Below are positions 7,521 to 59,414 of a DNA stretch of 64,000 nucleotides, one piece after another. The notes under the pieces are model-generated. The model worked only from the letters and a program-made list of their open reading frames with translations, had not been told where the DNA came from and made no database searches. How positions within the stretch are numbered: position 1 is the stretch's first letter; each line of letters opens with the position of its first letter. A program made the position numbers and the translations under genes. Source of the stretch: Kiritimatiellia bacterium (GTDB taxonomy: Bacteria; Verrucomicrobiota; Kiritimatiellia; JAQICX01); assembly GCA_027858345.1 (NCBI GenBank), contig JAQICX010000182.1, positions 273 to 64,272 of the forward strand. The letters run 5' to 3'.

Positions 7521-7686
7521 AAAGATATAATCTCCATTTCTTCATTCTTTATTAAATGGGCAATGTTTCAAATCAAAACAAAATAACCCTATAACCTGTC
7601 ATTACAACAGGTGTTCAATCATAACTAACTGTTTATTATCAAGGACTTACAAATATTCCAAGATAAAAATCCTCTAAAAACTCTAT

Positions 7687-8703
7687 TTATTTCCCTTCAA
7701 AAACAAGGACTTCATCGTCATCAATGCGCTTTATTACTATATTTTGACCCGAGTTGTCAACATGAATAAACTGATATGGCTTATTTTTTAGCTTAAATGT
7801 ATCACCAGCACGTAATTTGAATTCTTCACCTGTGATGTTAAACTTAAGGGTTACAGTGTATTCTTTATACGCAGTACCTTTACCTTCGATAAGATCAATT
7901 TTTTTCCCGGAAGGAGATATCAAACGCAAAACATCTTTATCTCGCTCTCCCTCATTCTGAGCTTTTGCAGCACCTTTTCCAAAATTTGACAGTGTGAACC
8001 CTTCAACCTTTTCCCCGAGTTTCTTAAAATGAGTTCTATCACCATTCTTTAGATTTATCTGGAACATTCTAGATTTATCTGGTAGCAACGATGAACCTTT
8101 AAACAATAGATTAAATGGGTCAGCAACCACTGAAACAACTTTCAATTCTGTGTCTGGTGGTGGATAACTATTTGGATCCGATAGACTCGTATTTGACTTA
8201 AACTCAACAATGTTTGAGAATCCATCACCATCTGCATCAGCCATTGAATCATCAAGACGATGGTTTAAACCATGCTCTTTTTCATACATATCAGGTATTC
8301 CATCCTTGTCTCCATCATATTTTTCGTCAAGTGATCTAAGTGGTGGCTGTACTGTTTGACAAAAAGGACATTTCTTTGCAAAGTATGCTATTGGTATTTT
8401 GCAGTCAATACAAACAACTCTTGACTCTGGAACAAACATAGCAACATTTGTCCAACCTGGATCAGCTAAATTTAACTGATACGGATTTGTAATCTCTGCT
8501 ATTGTGTCCTCGTACTGAGAAACATCTAAAACAGATGCATTAGGGTTAGCCTTGGTGTAAGAAACAATCTCGTTTTCAACTTCAGCCATATCTTTAACAC
8601 CCTGCCCAACATTTATATATAGGTAGGCAGCTGTTGCCAACAAAGCAATAACCACCAATATTAAAATAATTTTATCATAAGAACTTTTTATCATAGAAAT
8701 CAT
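7687..8703 (-). CDS. Membrane-anchored hypothetical protein with CxxC...CxxC zinc ribbon and thrombospondin-type-3-like Ca-binding repeats (DGDKDGIPD, DADGDGFSN); pilus/secretion-cluster associated
   Basis: 338 aa; N-terminal TM helix; CIDCKIPIAYFAKKCPFC; acidic D-x-D-G-D repeats; sits between secretin and PilMN genes. Confidence 0.6.
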   Translation of the reverse strand: MISMIKSSYDKIILILVVIALLATAAYLYINVGQGVKDMAEVENEIVSYTKANPNASVLDVSQYEDTIAEITNPYQLNLADPGWTNVAMFVPESRVVCIDCKIPIAYFAKKCPFCQTVQPPLRSLDEKYDGDKDGIPDMYEKEHGLNHRLDDSMADADGDGFSNIVEFKSNTSLSDPNSYPPPDTELKVVSVVADPFNLLFKGSSLLPDKSRMFQINLKNGDRTHFKKLGEKVEGFTLSNFGKGAAKAQNEGERDKDVLRLISPSGKKIDLIEGKGTAYKEYTVTLKFNITGEEFKLRAGDTFKLKNKPYQFIHVDNSGQNIVIKRIDDDEVLVFEGK

Positions 8704-18185: not shown

Positions 18186-18382
18186 AACATAATACCAAAA
18201 ATGGCTTTTAAAATTGAGCTAAAAAAAATCCGAGCCAACTGGAGGCAGCTACAATATGTGAAACATGGAAAAACTCTAATGGCATTCACAACACCTGTAG
18301 CCGAGTCGCTCCGGCTCTGGAAAATAAAATTTTCATGACTTTAAGACAGACACAGACCTGTAAAAAAATAGTTTGATAATAA

Positions 18383-21074: not shown

Positions 21075-21175
21075 CCTGTTCGCCAAAACTCCTCCCCGGC
21101 TAGCTTGCTAGTCCCGCTCTGCGGGAGGAGGTCACCTCGCGTGCGAGGTGGGAGGGTACTTACTTCTTCCTTAGA
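21075..21175. repeat. Stacked-hairpin GC-rich intergenic repeat (family 2: CTCCTCCC...GGGAGGAGG + CACCTCGC-gtg-CGAGGTG + GGGAGGGTACTTACTTCTTCC)
   Basis: Copies at 21075-21175, 22598-22672, 31385-31495, 31836-31960 and inverted at 50640-50745. Confidence 0.8.
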
Positions 21176-21421: not shown

Positions 21422-21455
21422 CTGTAGCCGAGGTCCGCAGACCTCGGGAAAACAA
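21422..21455. repeat. CTGTAGCCGA + 8-bp-stem hairpin (GGTCcgcaGACC) + GGGAAAA module (family 1)
   Basis: Same module at 18295-18330, 43670-43700, 50851-50880 with different but self-complementary stems. Confidence 0.75.
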
Positions 21456-22398: not shown

Positions 22399-22597
22399 TT
22401 TATCGTCCTTTCTCTATAATTCATTCCGTTAAAAACTTTACTCTTTTAAAAACATATTTTGTTATAAATCAACGAGATACAGCAACTTTTGCTCTATTCC
22501 TATTTTTTTCGTCAGTCAACTGTGTCCTGCGAAGCTTGCAAAGCGAAGAATGATCTCGCCTTGCTTGACTACAGCCATCGTATCTAAAAACTACCCC

Positions 22598-22672
22598 TAG
22601 TATGCAAAAACTCCTCCCGCTTTTAGGGGAGGTCACCTCGCCTGCGAGGTGGGAGGGGTACTTACTTCTTCC
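22598..22672. repeat. Stacked-hairpin repeat family 2 copy (CCTCCCgcttttaGGGGAGG + CACCTCGCctgCGAGGTG + GGGAGGGGTACTTACTTCTTCC)
   Basis: Read directly; near-identical 3' half to 21127-21170. Confidence 0.8.
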
Positions 22673-31175: not shown

Positions 31176-31384
31176 ATCATTATTCCTTTATTTATCCTTC
31201 GGTTCTGTCAAAAGTTTGCAGGCTTCCGCCTTCGCAAAGCGAAGAATGACGCCCCTGGCGCTATCAGCCGTCATTCCTTCCAGCCTTCGCCGTCCATGCG
31301 TCGCTCTGCGAGCTATGCAGGAGGCGCTTGGGCTACGGCTGACAGGCCTTTGCGACATACAGGTGTTGTGTTTGCAAGTCAACT

Positions 31385-31495
31385 CTAGTCCGCAAAAGCT
31401 CCTCCCGCTTTTAGGGGAGGTGGCGATCCAGCTACTACTTTGCTTTAAGTCAAAAGCAAAGTAGTAGCTGGAGAGACGGAGGGGTACTGCCTTCA
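31385..31495. repeat. Stacked-hairpin repeat family 2 copy containing a perfect 19-bp-stem hairpin CCAGCTACTACTTTGCTTT-aagtca-AAAGCAAAGTAGTAGCTGG
   Basis: Read directly at 31412-31456; flanked by CCTCCCgcttttaGGGGAGG and GGAGGGGTACTGCC. Confidence 0.8.
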
Positions 31496-31835
31496 TCACT
31501 GAATATTCGAAGTCGGACACTTTCTTGTATTCTTACTATTAAAGCTTTCTTACAAAAACCAAAGATACATTTTTCTGACTTGCGGGTCATTTTCGCAAAC
31601 ACACGGTCATAATGCAAGAACTTTTTTTCAAAAAATTAAGAAAAACTGCTTTTTTGTCGATTATCTTGTTAAATACTAGGATGCTAGTTGATTTTCTTAC
31701 GTCAATATCTATTTATCACAGGCAAACACGGACTAACACACACAAGCGAATATCCAGCTTGGGTGTCGAGACATGGTCTCGCAAAGTGAAGGCTGAAAAC
31801 CTCGAGAAACTTGCAAATAAATTTGAGTCCGCCAA

Positions 31836-31960
31836 AGCTCCTCCCCGGCTAGCTTGCTAGTCCCGCAAAGCGGGAGAAGGTGGCAATCCCGCTACTACTT
31901 TGCCTTTTTTAAAAGCAAAGTGGAAGCGGGAGAGACGGAGGGGTATTCATTTTATTGGAT
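31836..31960. repeat. Stacked-hairpin repeat family 2 copy (extended CTCCTCCCCGGCTAGCTTGCTAGTCCCGCAAAGCGGGAGAAGG + degenerate long hairpin + GGAGGGGTA)
   Basis: Near-identical 5' half to 21084-21130 and to the reverse complement of 50690-50745. Confidence 0.8.
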
Positions 31961-41272: not shown

Positions 41273-41505
41273 ATGATAAATATGAAAAATAATTTTTTAA
41301 AGGCGGGGTCATCAGTCTTCGCCCAGCTATTAACAATATAATAAATCTTGTTAGTAGCTGGGCTACGCCAGACGCAGCGTACTTTGAAGGTAAACCCTAC
41401 AAAATACTTGCAAATCAAGGATTTAGCTTTGGTTGCAGCATCCGTAACTGTAGGGTCGGGGTCCGTGACCCCGCCAAAAAGGGTGTTCAACCGAAAAATC
41501 AAGGA
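41273..41505 (+). ncRNA. Copy 1 of a paired ~200-bp structured repeat (candidate small RNA gene or MITE) with TGATAAAT promoter-like box, nested hairpins and 10-bp terminal inverted repeat GGCGGGGTCA / TGACCCCGCC
   Basis: First 102 nt (41301-41402) identical to 59161-59262; 3' hairpin GGGGTC-cgt-GACCCC vs GGGGTG-ctt-CACCCC in copy 2 (compensatory). Overlapping ORFs 41239..41502(-) and 41348..41536(+) are judged spurious. Confidence 0.45.
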
Positions 41506-43293: not shown

Positions 43294-43618
43294 TAAGTCA
43301 GCAGGTTAAGATTAAGGTTAAGGTTAAGGGCTGAATACCTCCCCGGCGGAATTATAGAAAAATTGAAAAAACAGGAATATTCTTCATGTAACACGGAGAA
43401 AATAGGCAGGGAATTGCAAAATCAGTTTTGCGGGTTTAAGTCCTTGGTCGAAAGTCTTTAGTCTTTCTTTTTGGTTGCGAAGGCAACCCGCGAGTTTTGG
43501 TCATTTTTGTCCTTTAGGTCGTTTTATACATTCACCGACCTCTGAGGATATCAGCTAAAACTAGGAAACGGCAGAGGACTGATTGCACTTCCACACCTGT
43601 CTTGTCGCGCCGGAGTGA

Positions 43619-43787
43619 CACGGCTACAGAGTGAACTTTGTAAATTGACGGTTAAACTGTAGTTTCACTCTGTAGCCGACCTCAGCAGAGGTCGGGAACA
43701 CGGTTGAATCGAGGAATTAACGCTTAGCAACTTTTAGTCGAGAGTCCTGAGTCGTGAGTCAAATTGACATATAACATAACAGTTATG
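43619..43787. repeat. ~165-bp composite hairpin repeat (family 1 long form): 15-bp perfect inverted repeat CGGCTACAGAGTGAA/TTCACTCTGTAGCCG, CCGACCTC-agca-GAGGTCGG hairpin, GGGAA, then GAATTAACGCTTAGCAACTTTTAGTCGAGAGTCCTGAGTCGTGAGTCAAATTGACATATAACATA
   Basis: About 88% identical to 50808-50957. Confidence 0.8.
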
Positions 43788-43835
43788 AAAAAACATTAAA
43801 CTTGTGGAATAACCAAAAAAATAAAGGAAAACAAG

Positions 43836-44225
43836 ATGTCAAACGTTGCAGACAGATTACATAATGACAGATTAGTCGAACTACTAGGAATTGAAATACT
43901 TGATGAAAACGAACAATTTCCATCATGCCAGCTCAAAGTATGCAAGAAACACCTCAACGGTGTAGACTACACACAGGGTGGTGCAATTTTCACACTTGCG
44001 GACTACGCATTCGCAATTGCATCCAACACAGACCAACGCCTATCCCTCGGCATAAGCACAACAATGAATTTCTTCAAAGCAACCAAAGAAGGCGATATCC
44101 TCTACACAAAAACTCGCGAACTAAGCCGCACAAAAAAACTTTCAATCTACGAAGTTGAGATATACTGCGAAGATGCACTTATAGCAACCTTCACAGGCAC
44201 CGCATATAAAGTCGCCGATTGCTAG
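43836..44225 (+). CDS. PaaI/YbgC-type hotdog-fold thioesterase
   Basis: 129 aa; …GGAIFTLADYAFAIASN… hotdog thioesterase signature. Confidence 0.8.
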   Translation: MSNVADRLHNDRLVELLGIEILDENEQFPSCQLKVCKKHLNGVDYTQGGAIFTLADYAFAIASNTDQRLSLGISTTMNFFKATKEGDILYTKTRELSRTKKLSIYEVEIYCEDALIATFTGTAYKVADC

Positions 44226-44685
44226 AGAAGGGTAACGTAACGATCTTTCCCGCCTTACGGGACTAGCAGAGCCAGCACGCAAGTGTGAAGGTTTTCATTT
44301 GGTTTGCAACAAGATCCATCATCTTAGCTTATTTTTAATACGACCACAATGTGGAAATCCACCCTTTTCCGTACAGGTTAAACGTCCGCAGGGTAAGAGG
44401 CTTTAGTTTATCTAAAGCAACAGAGCATAGCGAAGTGACAATTTGGCAGTTCTATACCATTTTTATTTGGTCGACAACAGGTAGTCCTTTTACTTTCAAA
44501 AAGTGTAAAACTATCACAGGACAAGACGAGTTCTGCGTCCTAGTTTGTCATTGGCGTAATTGTACTGCGACATGGTTGCATTGTCAAATTGATTTTTGAC
44601 TTCTGTGACTAAATCTCGGTTTGGCTCGTAACTTCTCGTTACTTCAAAGTTGTTCGGGGCAGCTTCACTCCTTTTTCCCACTTTC

Positions 44686-46432: not shown

Positions 46433-47203
46433 CTACTGTAAATACCACACACCATTCGTTTTGATAGCGTACATCATGTAGCTCTCGTACCACTCTTCAT
46501 AAGCAGCTTTTAATTTGATCAAGGGAGTCTCATTATCTCTGCAAATTATAGCAATGTGATCATTATACGGACTAATGCTAGAAACAATGTCGCCTTCACA
46601 TTCTGTCCACTCCAAGCGAGATGTAGGACTCATGGCTATGGAATAGAAAAACATCGTACGCTTCTTTTGGACTGCCACAGAGCAGCCCTTCGCTTCTGCG
46701 AGATCTACCACCTGATAGTTGAGATTTGTTGCAAGAACTGGTTCCAAATTGCCATTTTTGAAAGCAGAAATCACCTCAACCACTAGTTGCGTGAGTGTGC
46801 TTTGATCCTCTTGTGTGATATTTGTTATTGAATCTGATTCCTGCCAACTCCATTGATGGTCAAATGTCGGGAGATAGAAATTTGTGAAAACCACAGAAGG
46901 AACACCGTTAGGAAGTATCCATTCACAAACGTTTGTGCTTGTACCATCGGTTGCAATTCTCTCAATACGTCCGGTAACACCTCCCTGTTGCATGATCACA
47001 ACGGAATTTGAGCCTTCAACCAAGTGAGTTGTAACGATCGGTGGCAGGGCATCCCCTTTGTTGAGATACTTGAAGCCGTTGATATAGACAGCTTCTTCAG
47101 CAGAACCTTCCGCATACAGAATATAGTCTTGCCCCGATGCCCCAATGGCACAAAAGATAAGGGATACAATCGTGATGCAAAAAGTCTGTGTAACGCGTTT
47201 CAT
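46433..47203 (-). CDS. Secreted hypothetical protein; start region contains an in-frame tandem duplication of RBS+ATG
   Basis: Likely start MKRVTQTFCITIVSLIFCAIGASGQ at 47203 (GGGAGG SD); ORF track extends to 47368 through two extra in-frame 45-nt repeat units each carrying SD+ATG. Confidence 0.65.
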   Translation of the reverse strand: MKRVTQTFCITIVSLIFCAIGASGQDYILYAEGSAEEAVYINGFKYLNKGDALPPIVTTHLVEGSNSVVIMQQGGVTGRIERIATDGTSTNVCEWILPNGVPSVVFTNFYLPTFDHQWSWQESDSITNITQEDQSTLTQLVVEVISAFKNGNLEPVLATNLNYQVVDLAEAKGCSVAVQKKRTMFFYSIAMSPTSRLEWTECEGDIVSSISPYNDHIAIICRDNETPLIKLKAAYEEWYESYMMYAIKTNGVWYLQ

Positions 47204-47289
47204 GTTTGATATTTCTCCCTGTTCAAAAGTTCTATGTGATAGTTTCATGTTTGATATTCCTCCCTGTACAAAAGTTCTATGTAATGCGT
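47198..47289 (-). repeat. Two tandem 46-bp units (about 93% identical) each containing SD GGGAGG and an in-frame ATG at the 5' end of the 46433 gene
   Basis: 47198-47243 tttcatgtttgatatttctccctgttcaaaagttctatgtgatag vs 47244-47289 tttcatgtttgatattcctccctgtacaaaagttctatgtaatgc. Confidence 0.85.
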
Positions 47290-47394
47290 GTAATGGTTCC
47301 ATGAATTTAGCATCAAACTTCATGGTTTTGCTCCAGGTAATATCTTTTATATACTTGACCCTTGTCAATTAATAATTAACCATTGATAATTATT

Positions 47395-48840
47395 TCAATA
47401 TCCGCTGCCGCCACGCATTGGACCACGACATGCAAGGGGATTGAGAGAACGCAACTTCTTGCTGTCAAAATCTCCTTCACTGGTAATTAGTTTGCCATCA
47501 GCAACAAGATCACTCTTGTTCTTTTCCAGATATTTAATCAAAGCATCTCTAAGCTCAGTCAATTCATTGGTAAATCGAGGATCACTAACAAGATTATTCA
47601 TATCATCAGGGTCTGCCTGAATGTTAAACAGCTGCTCAACACCACCCTCTTTATAAAAAATGTATTTCAGCTCATCCTTATAAACAGCAGCACTACCTGG
47701 AACTTCACCATAAATGTATCTATCATCTGAAACATCGATTGCTGGATTCATCAAAGGAATCAAACTCTGCCCCTCTGCAGTCTCATCTTGCTCAATGCCA
47801 ATCATATCAAACAGTGTTGGGCATATATCCGCAGTCTGAACAGGTGTACCATCCAGAACCGAACGATCAAAACGAGAATCATTGGCTGGTGGACGGAAAA
47901 TCAACGGCACTCGTGCAGCCGACTCCAAAAAGCTATGTTTTGTGAACAAACCATGATCTCCAAGACACTCTCCATGATCAGATGTAAATATAATTGCCGT
48001 ATCTCTATCAACACCATGAGTCTTAAGAGATCCAAACAGACGCCCCAAATGATAGTCAATTTGACTAATCTGACCATAATAGCGTCGACGTGACTCCCTT
48101 ATAATCTCCGGTGTCAAATCGTCCCAATTATAAATCACCTCACGCTTCTGAAACATTGCAGGCAAATCATCATCAACCCAATCACCCTTGACTGGATCCG
48201 ATATTGTAAAGTTATCATACATGCGATCATATGGTGGAGGTGGATCAAAAGGACTGTGTGGTGCCTCAAAAACAAGATAGAGCATAAATGGCATTTCGGG
48301 GTCTCTTTGATCCAAGAACCTAATTGACTCATCAATTGACCAAGTCGTGTGATAATATTTGTCAGGAGTTATTGCCACACCGGGATAAACCTCATTGCCT
48401 CCAAGTCCTTGACCTCTAAAGGCTCCACCATAACCATGGTCTTCCAGCCACCAGATATAATCATCAGGGTGCAATGTCACATGTTCAAAACCATTACGAG
48501 AACGAGATGGTGCAAAATGCATCTTGCCAATAGCTTTTGTCTGATAGCCAGCTTCACGAACTAATCTTGCAGGCAAAGTGCTTTGTCTATCAAAGTCGGG
48601 AGCATTGTTTTCATTAAAATTGTTTATACAACGCATTTGGGAACCTGTCTTTCCCGTTAACATAGTCACTCGCTGAGGCATACATATTGGACAATCTGCA
48701 TAGGCTTGACTAAACAAAATTCCTTCAGATGCCAGTTGATTCAGATGAGGAGTCATAACAGGATGGTTGTTCTTATAGAGTCCGAGACAATCGCCCCGCC
48801 ATTGATCTGCAACAATATAAATTATATTTGGTTTTTTCAT
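47395..48840 (-). CDS. Sulfatase (formylglycine-dependent arylsulfatase family), no signal peptide
   Basis: 481 aa; N-terminal IIYIVADQWRGD and C-x-P-x-R (CMPQR) motif; …FTSDHGE…. Confidence 0.85.
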   Translation of the reverse strand: MKKPNIIYIVADQWRGDCLGLYKNNHPVMTPHLNQLASEGILFSQAYADCPICMPQRVTMLTGKTGSQMRCINNFNENNAPDFDRQSTLPARLVREAGYQTKAIGKMHFAPSRSRNGFEHVTLHPDDYIWWLEDHGYGGAFRGQGLGGNEVYPGVAITPDKYYHTTWSIDESIRFLDQRDPEMPFMLYLVFEAPHSPFDPPPPYDRMYDNFTISDPVKGDWVDDDLPAMFQKREVIYNWDDLTPEIIRESRRRYYGQISQIDYHLGRLFGSLKTHGVDRDTAIIFTSDHGECLGDHGLFTKHSFLESAARVPLIFRPPANDSRFDRSVLDGTPVQTADICPTLFDMIGIEQDETAEGQSLIPLMNPAIDVSDDRYIYGEVPGSAAVYKDELKYIFYKEGGVEQLFNIQADPDDMNNLVSDPRFTNELTELRDALIKYLEKNKSDLVADGKLITSEGDFDSKKLRSLNPLACRGPMRGGSGY

Positions 48841-50639: not shown

Positions 50640-50745
50640 GGTTTACAAGGAAGTACCCCTCCCACCTCGCAAGCGAGGTGACCTCCTCCCGCCTTGCGGG
50701 ACTAGCAAAGCCAGCCGGGGAGGAGCTTTGGCGGACTAAGGTTGA
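50640..50745. repeat. Inverted-orientation copy of stacked-hairpin repeat family 2
   Basis: Reverse complement reads ttagtccgccaaagCTCCTCCCCGGCTGGCTTTGCTAGTCCCGCAAGGCGGGAGGAGGTCACCTCGCTTGCGAGGTGGGAGGGGTACTTCC. Confidence 0.8.
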
Positions 50746-50807
50746 TTTGCAGTTTCCCGCGCCGAGGCGACGAGGCTATCCCGCCTTACGGGACTAGCAA
50801 AGCTAGC

Positions 50808-50957
50808 TGTGAACTTTGCAGGTTGACGGTTAAACTGTAGTTTCACCCTGTAGCCGAGTACCGTGGGCTCGGGAAAAAAGTTGAATCAGGGAATTAACGC
50901 TTAGCAACTTTTAGTCGTGAGTCCTGAGTCGTGAGTCACATTGACATATAACATAGG
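50808..50957. repeat. Second copy of the ~150-bp composite hairpin repeat (family 1 long form)
   Basis: About 88% identical to 43631-43787; hairpin stem here CCGAG…CTCGG instead of CCGACCTC…GAGGTCGG. Confidence 0.8.
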
Positions 50958-51044
50958 GGGCTAGCGTTGCTATCCCGCAAAGCGGGATCTGAAAAGTGCA
51001 TGAAATTTTTGAGAGAATAGAGATCAAAAATCAAGGAGAAGAAA

Positions 51045-59133: not shown

Positions 59134-59398
59134 TGATAAATCTGAAATATATGTTTTCAAGGCGGGGTCATCAGTCTTCGCCCAGCTATTAACAATATAA
59201 TAAATCTTGTTAGTAGCTGGGCTACGCCAGACGCAGCGTACTTTGAAGGTAAACCCTACAAACCACCTGCGAAGCAACCTTTTAGCTTTAATTTCAGCAT
59301 CCGTAACTTTCTTGTCACGCCGTAGTCTGGAACAGCGAAGGAGGAAGGGTCGGGGTGCTTCACCCCGCCGAAAAAGGTATTCAACCGAAAAATCAAGG
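59134..59398 (+). ncRNA. Copy 2 of the paired structured repeat (candidate sRNA gene/MITE), with ~35-nt internal insertion relative to copy 1
   Basis: 59161-59262 identical to 41301-41402; conserved upstream TGATAAAT (59134-59141) and downstream GGTATTCAACCGAAAAATCAAGGA; overlapping ORFs 58996..59277(-) and 59207..59428(+) judged spurious. Confidence 0.45.
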
Positions 59399-59414
59399 AA
59401 AGAATCAATTGATG

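Follow-up and report, generated by a model that had tools for sequence, protein, structure and literature searches.

The 64-kb window (the whole stretch of DNA that was analysed, with a GC content of about 38%) carries, in four of its intergenic spacers, a short hairpin preceded by the tetranucleotide GTAG. As identified by Pfam, the spacer at 18.3 kb lies between a SurA-like gene and a lipoprotein-like ORF, that at 21.4 kb between a peptidase S49 gene and a thioredoxin-reductase-like gene, that at 43.6 kb between the genes for thiamin pyrophosphokinase and a 4HBT thioesterase, and that at 50.8 kb between those for TrpA and an SNF transporter. All four intact copies, and both of two decayed copies, were extragenic and located between genes with clear Pfam identities, and the mechanically called ORFs overlapping them generated no Pfam match. 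Three of the four intact copies point the same way as both of their neighbouring genes and precede a start codon; the one at 21.4 kb runs antisense to its two flanking genes, 30 nt past the stop codon of the thioredoxin-reductase-like gene on the minus strand. The first-pass annotation had named copies inside coding regions as an observation that would speak against its reading; every copy in the window is extragenic, and the hairpin-bearing matches in other genomes (see below) lie in ORF-poor stretches.

The pattern GTAGCCGA-N(8-16)-TCKGR matched the 64-kb window four times, always on the plus strand (18297, 21424, 43672 and 50850), against 0.01 matches expected from dinucleotide shuffles. 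In the window scan the exact sequence CTGTAGCCGA likewise occurred four times, all on the plus strand, starting at 18295, 21422, 43670 and 50848, and allowing one mismatch added one further match, on the minus strand at 43620-43629. The four core copies had been recognised from the outset, with three of the starts correct (18295, 21422, 43670) and the fourth placed at 50851 instead of 50848. Each core, about 30 nt in size, consists of an unpaired (CT)GTAG tag, an 8-bp hairpin of the form CCGA-NNNN, loop of 3-4 nt, NNNN-TCGG, and a GAA(A)A tail, and GTAG directly adjoins the stem in all four copies; these dimensions fall within the 6-13 bp stem and 20-40 bp length of repetitive extragenic palindromes (REPs). 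CCGA/TCGG at the base of the stem is the same in every copy; the four inner positions vary from copy to copy yet remain paired (GGTC/GACC, CCTC/GAGG, GTCG/CGGC and GTAC/GGGC in the window). Stems that vary but stay self-complementary had been described in the first-pass annotation, and the complementarity holds, but the hairpin had been drawn too short: CCGA and TCGG pair with each other and are therefore part of the stem, making a hairpin of 8 bp.

Two of the four stems are perfect, one has a T.G pair and a mismatch, and one has a T.G pair and a bulge. The core at 43.6 kb (43670-43700, plus strand) is made up of the CT-GTAG tag (43670-43675), the stem arm CCGACCTC (43676-43683), the loop AGCA, the stem arm GAGGTCGG (43688-43695) and the tail GAACA. 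The core at 21.4 kb (21422-21452, plus strand), a singleton, reads CTGTAG CCGAGGTC cgca GACCTCGG GAAAA and has a perfect hairpin at 21428-21447. The core at 50.8 kb (50848-50877, plus strand) reads CTGTAG CCGAGTACCGTGGGCTCGG GAAAA, with the hairpin CCGAGT..GCTCGG at 50854-50872, and that at 18.3 kb (18295-18324, plus strand) reads CTGTAG CCGAGTCG ctc CGGCTC(T)GG AAAA, with a T.G pair and one bulge in the hairpin at 18301-18320. Four intact and two decayed copies per 64 kb correspond to about one per 11-16 kb, and the roughly 6 kb past the window ends contained none more. REPs in E. coli have a density of roughly one per 8 kb, and the copy number of a REP genome-wide is typically tens to hundreds.

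The two decayed copies are inverted partners of intact ones. At 43.6 kb the partner (43606-43629, minus strand) reads CTGTAGCCGTGTCACTCCGGCGCG and matches the core at 18.3 kb with 90% identity over 21 nt, and at 18.3 kb the partner (18230-18252, minus strand; GTAGCTGCCTCCAGTTGGCTCGG) has a GTAGCTG head at 18252, followed by a 23-nt remnant ending GCTCGG; GTAGCTGCCTCCAGTTGGCTCGG equals the 50.8 kb hairpin in length and, counted by hand, is identical to it at 16 of 23 bases. Read from the sequence, the distance between CTAC and GTAG is exactly 44 nt at both loci (43628-43671 for the plus-strand spacer at 43.6 kb), and both spacers carry GTGAA...TTCAC, which at 43.6 kb makes a 15-bp inverted repeat together with both heads. 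The inverted decayed partner and the identical 44-nt spacing at the two loci indicate that both are tail-to-tail dimers, with GTAG inward. No two dimers in the window are near-identical and the partners are decayed, unlike the near-identical doublet population that characterizes REPINs. The differing copies and decayed partners fit old or inactive elements, with no direct sign of recent mobility. A further sequence at 43535-43552 (CACCGACCTCTGAGG) resembles the 43.7 kb stem (CCGACCTC..GAGG) without a GTAG head and may be a deletion remnant of another copy in that spacer.

The 43.6 and 50.8 kb spacers also have a longer unit in common (43631-43778 and 50809-50955). It had been reported as about 150 bp at 88% identity; the shared unit is real, and the exact figures are 148 nt and 87.2% identity in blastn, with two ungapped blocks of 49 and 87 nt that are 92% identical each. 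The unit starts with GTGAAC inside the dimer spacer, contains the right-hand REP and 78 nt more, and is missing the left REP; its ends (GTGAAC... and ...TAACATA) are not inverted repeats. The 78-nt 3′ extension (43701-43778, plus strand) runs through GTTGAATC..GGAATTAACGCTTAGCAACTTTT, four AGTC heptads at 43736-43760 and TTGACATATAACATA at 43764-43778, and the extension with its GAGTC heptads falls outside the REP model. The triple GAGTC motif with a 7-nt period (43742/43749/43756 and 50919/50926/50933) and the terminal TTGACATATAACATA are in both copies, as the first-pass annotation had claimed. The 15-bp perfect inverted repeat (43621-43635/43664-43678), which it had also assigned to the unit, is present in the 43.6 kb copy but absent from the 50.8 kb copy; its left arm lies mostly beyond the shared unit, and at 50.8 kb a different hairpin module stands in place of that arm. 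The second copy of the unit (plus strand, 87% identical) lies between two copies, in inverted orientation, of a hairpin module that is not related to it (50776-50808 and 50959-50987).

Arrays of (A/G)GTC with a 6-8 nt period occur three times in the window (43439-43463, 43736-43760 and 50913-50937), against 0.34 expected, and the one at 43439 lies in the same spacer as the 43.6 kb array, 300 nt upstream of it. The 148-nt unit itself was found in two copies in the window and in none of the loci fetched from other genomes. On the simplest reading, this composite is half a dimer (spacer and REP) with 78 nt of neighbouring sequence, copied between two repeat-rich spacers; it is neither a gene in its own right nor a leader that is conserved. 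In a metagenome-assembled genome (MAG) of Victivallales, repeats similar to the arrays (TGAGTCAC TGAGTCAT and GTAGTCCT) flank the REP at L107 3038-3165.

The REPs are embedded in mosaics of other hairpins. Within the spacer at 50.8 kb, the unit with the REP lies between inverted copies of the GGGACTAGCAAAGCTAGC/CCCGC..GCGGG module, the flanking pair reading GGGACTAGCAAAGCTAGC ... GCTAGCGTTGCTATCCC, and beside the CACCTCGC..GCGAGGTG module, so that at least three different hairpin modules surround the REP. These modules recur at 21.1, 22.6, 31.4, 31.8 and 44.2 kb, an arrangement like that of bacterial interspersed mosaic elements (BIMEs). Nested hairpin modules without a GTAG tag were located at 21078-21160, 22590-22660, 31380-31420, 31827-31881, 44245-44293, 50655-50735 (minus strand), 50776-50808 and 50959-50987. 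Their sequences are CTCCTCCC..GGGAGGAG, GGCTAGCTTGCTAG, CCCGC-nnn-GCGGG and CACCTCGC-nnn-GCGAGGTG, and their loops are variable. Sometimes a module has another inserted in its loop; together with the REPs, the modules build the intergenic mosaics.

Other repeats were seen in the window. A second, unrelated repeat of about 230 nt is present at 41292-41505 and 59151-59399, the first 115 nt or so being identical; its terminal hairpin has a compensatory change (CGGGGTC/GACCCCG versus CGGGGTG/CACCCCG), and the 59 kb copy carries a 35-nt insertion. Conserved pieces of this repeat (GTTAGTAGCTGGGC ... CGCCGACCAAAAAGGGTGTTCAACC) recur in relatives (L163, position 79, and L164, position 3258). It generated no Rfam match at the gathering threshold, and it may represent a small RNA or else a shared leader. 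At 31427-31472 there is a perfect 20-bp palindrome (TCCAGCTACTACTTTGCTTT aagtca AAAGCAAAGTAGTAGCTGGA), with a shorter related copy 460 nt off (31890-31921) and GAGAGACGGAGGGGTA after each. Two tandem 45-nt units, 93% identical (47197-47285), lie at the 5′ end of the ORF 46433-47368 (minus strand) and near the end of the ORF 47395-48840 (minus strand).

The SNF transporter is identical to a protein that NCBI assigns to a Kiritimatiellae MAG, and after this its nearest relatives are from Kiritimatiellia, Verrucomicrobia and Lentisphaerae, which places the host in the PVC superphylum. In relatives with a 78-79% identical SNF protein, the gene order trpA-SNF-bacA is the same and the spacers hold other modules; neither the core nor the 148-nt unit was found in the orthologous trpA-SNF spacers of these relatives (L161 and L163). 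In one of them (L161), a 25-nt unit (AAACTGCGTTGGGGCAAGTTAAGTC) is repeated in tandem about 14 times within the trpA-SNF spacer (7528-7900), and the SNF transporter gene is duplicated.

Public genomes, metagenomes and viral contigs were searched with the pattern CTGTAGCCGA-N9-14-TCGGGAA(AA), which leaves the inner stem unconstrained. Among the 151 unique matches listed from public contigs and the window, 17 had Watson-Crick pairs at all four inner positions, against 0.9 expected when the gap was shuffled. The median length of the covering ORF, among the matches listed, was 120 aa for the 17 hairpin matches versus 483 aa for the non-hairpin matches; as the latter sit in long ORFs, they were regarded as chance matches in coding DNA. 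About 85% of the matches listed in the genome scan were such chance matches, in the coding DNA of high-GC genomes; the informative part is the subset that bears a hairpin. The metagenome scan gave 29 matches, none of them from the sample to which the window belongs. The viral contig scan gave 19 single matches with stem complementarity in one only (L006), and the remainder, lacking complementarity, are consistent with chance.

A count of the matches listed in which a stem of 7 bp or more follows a GTAGCCG head gave at least 44 distinct copies, whose inner stems are of at least 10 types (AGTC/GACT, GGTC/GACC, CCTC/GAGG, ACTC/GAGT, CATC/GATG, GGAC/GTCC, GGCG/CGCC, GTCG/CGGC, ATTT/AAAT and AGC/GCT). 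Their hosts are mostly PVC bacteria: Verrucomicrobiota, Planctomycetota and the Victivallales MAG, whose hairpin (L107) is of the 18.3 kb type with one position different; the same type occurs in a metagenome contig (L158). The Verrucomicrobiae MAG MFD03346 carries at least six near-identical palindromes of about 135 nt (L021 4400-4530, and also in L040, L058, L072, L087 and L122), each made of two inverted GTAG-CCGAAGC-GTAA-GCTTCGG units with an 18-nt spacer and further inverted flanks, an organization like that of REPINs. Inverted doublets were also found in L052, L058, L070, L087, L090, L134, L136, L141, L144 and L149, from Planctomycetota, Verrucomicrobiota and metagenome contigs, and dimers with GTAG outward in L021/L040/L058/L072/L087/L122, L052, L090, L136 and L149. 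The doublets elsewhere occupy short spacers between ordinary genes, and no transposase adjoined the copies examined. Another REP type of MFD03346 (GTAG CCGCGAAT cgc ATTCGCGG) forms doublets at L058 5802-5857 and L087 7473-7562. The gene between two REP doublets in L058 was considered as a transposase and rejected, since it encodes a 444-aa enzyme-like protein.

[quoted passage not shown] As described in that survey, they have an unpaired GTAG, a GC-rich stem of 6-13 bp and a loop of 2-4 nt; sub-families carry alternative complementary stem residues, and G.T pairs are frequent. They occur there as singletons, as head-head and tail-tail dimers 20-100 bp apart and as clusters, mainly between unidirectional or convergent genes. 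The PVC examples given in the same survey (PMC3733652) are Opitutus terrae (GTAG-17 to -20) and Rhodopirellula baltica (GTAG-20/21), and an intragenic GTAG-21 insert of R. baltica encodes SRIRQEF. This peptide can be back-translated to AGCCGAATTCGCCAAGAATTC, which would be of the GTAG-CCGA...TCGG type, the real codons not being given in the paper.

We conclude from the sequence that the CTGTAG-hairpin-GAA core is most probably a GTAG-tagged REP lying in BIME-like mosaics, to which mobilisation by a REP-associated tyrosine transposase (RAYT) and an effect on mRNA would be attributed by analogy with the family. The assignment was made because of the anatomy of the core, its non-chance recurrence, its extragenic position, the complementary stem variants, the dimers, the doublets in other PVC genomes and the absence from orthologous spacers. 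Of the two possibilities left by the first-pass annotation, a BIME/REP-like mosaic or a small-RNA family, the former is therefore supported and the latter is not, there being no Rfam match, promoter, terminator or orthologous conservation. The "classic compensatory signature" noted there is real but does not argue for an RNA gene; what lies behind it in REPs is a hairpin that is recognised as single-stranded DNA, forms in mRNA, or both.

That the core or the 148-nt unit is a structured non-coding RNA, either a small-RNA family or a cis-regulatory leader, is the alternative that survives best, and we still consider it quite unlikely. It would account for the co-orientation of three of the four copies with the flanking genes, upstream of a start codon, for the compensated stem variation with T.G pairs on the GTAG strand, and for the folding of both 205-nt regions, which is better than that of shuffles (z = -3.8 and -3.4). 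A consensus fold of all four copies, flanks included, however, had the REP hairpin as the only common structure, and neither gathering nor permissive thresholds gave an Rfam match: in the whole window only a tRNA passed the gathering threshold, and the permissive scan of 43300-43900 yielded only chance microRNA hairpin matches (E of at least 0.25). No sigma-70-like promoter or intrinsic terminator was found in the units; their terminal TTGACA is not accompanied by a usable -10 at a distance of 16-18 nt. The genes that follow the copies (lipoprotein-like, thioesterase, SNF transporter) are not related to one another, and one copy runs antisense to the gene on either side. Relatives lack the element in their orthologous trpA-SNF spacer, and elsewhere the same core forms palindromic doublets, alike on both strands. 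As a strand test, the asymmetry between G.T and A.C mismatches had too few cases, and among the tetranucleotide tags beside all 7-bp hairpins of the window, AT-rich chance hairpins dominate.

It is very unlikely that the repeats are miniature inverted-repeat elements (MITEs) of a conventional DDE insertion sequence, moved via terminal inverted repeats and not via the GTAG hairpin. The outer arms of the ~135-nt Verrucomicrobiae palindrome (CTTAATTTGC...GCAAATTAAG) do resemble terminal inverted repeats, and the 43.6 kb copy has its 15-bp inverted repeat, but the window copies have neither shared terminal inverted repeats nor target-site duplications, which speaks against a classical MITE, and the ends of the unit are not inverted repeats. 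Conservation across genomes concerns the GTAG tag and the base of the hairpin, not the ends, and there was no transposase gene beside any copy examined. Equally poor is the case for host-selected signals (terminators, attenuators or protein-binding sites) that arose in place and not by transposition: every copy is downstream of a gene end, one of them 30 nt past a stop codon, and REPs of E. coli have been co-opted for such roles, but independent origin would not give an identical 10-nt head and stem base at unrelated loci and in different phyla, and terminators in particular are excluded, as neither region contains a terminator-like site and there is no T-run on either strand (GAAAA follows the hairpin, CTACAG on the other strand).

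RAYT is a single-copy HUH/Y1 enzyme thought to spread REPs or REPINs between genes, and the cognate gene is usually flanked by the same REPs (REPtron). The features recognised by RAYT/TnpA-REP are the 5′ GTAG and the hairpin, and the enzyme cuts REPs and joins them again (Quentin et al. 2018, PMC6006769). By analogy with the family, the GTAG strand of the elements in the window would fold as single-stranded DNA, and a single-copy RAYT would cut at CT immediately 5′ of GTAG (CT|GTAGCCGAGGTCCGCAGACCTCGGGAA), thereby mobilising REPs or doublets. Transcribed copies would form stable hairpins in untranslated regions and might slow 3′ exonucleases, for which REPs act as barriers. A phmmer search with E. 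coli RayT found no RAYT among the six-frame ORFs of the window and the fetched loci, and the Y1 motif HuH...YxxNP had no match in the window, in the ~6 kb past its ends or in roughly 170 fetched loci. In a protein homologue search with E. coli RayT, the matches listed were enterobacterial proteins only.

GTAG-tagged REPs are already known as a class, including in PVC bacteria; what is new is a member in the Kiritimatiellae lineage, not an RNA gene or a mechanism. The GTAG-CCGA REP type is thereby seen in several PVC phyla, including Kiritimatiellae, where no earlier REP description was found, and this spread could help trace the persistence of REP-RAYT partnerships. More speculatively, and in our view improbably, GTAG-CCGA...TCGG-GAA may be a single PVC-wide REP lineage (Kiritimatiellota, Lentisphaerota, Verrucomicrobiota, Planctomycetota), kept over the long term by conserved RAYT specificity or moved between phyla, and the 148-nt unit, with four GAGTC heptads and TTGACA at its end, may be a regulatory cassette that is linked to REPs and copied upstream of genes. 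Annotation should treat the hairpins as REP-type repeats to be masked, rather than as small RNAs, riboswitches or ORFs; one mechanically called ORF of 179 aa crosses a repeat cluster.

Compared with known systems, the elements in the window are closest in anatomy to GTAG REPs, agreeing with every sequence-level feature described in the survey (PMC3733652), at the level of the class. They differ in that Kiritimatiellae are not included in that survey and that few copies are visible in the window. With REPINs (Bertels & Rainey 2011, PMC3116915; Quentin et al. 2018, PMC6006769) they share inverted REPs with a short spacer, foldable as one long hairpin, as is evident at 43.6 kb and for the Verrucomicrobiae MAG, whereas in the window the partners are decayed, the copies are not near-identical and no RAYT gene was found. 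The polarity of the doublets also differs, being tail-to-tail with GTAG inward in the window and GTAG outward in the other PVC contigs. Like the ends of IS200/IS605, the elements have a hairpin with an adjacent guide or tag, of the kind recognised as single-stranded DNA by an HUH/Y1 enzyme (the TnpA Y1 transposase for IS200/IS605), but they are non-autonomous, 30-110 nt long and without a transposase or TnpB between the hairpins. As in E. coli BIMEs, REPs and other short motifs in alternating orientation form mosaic intergenic clusters, although the accompanying modules of the window are unrelated in sequence to the S/L/s/l/r motifs.
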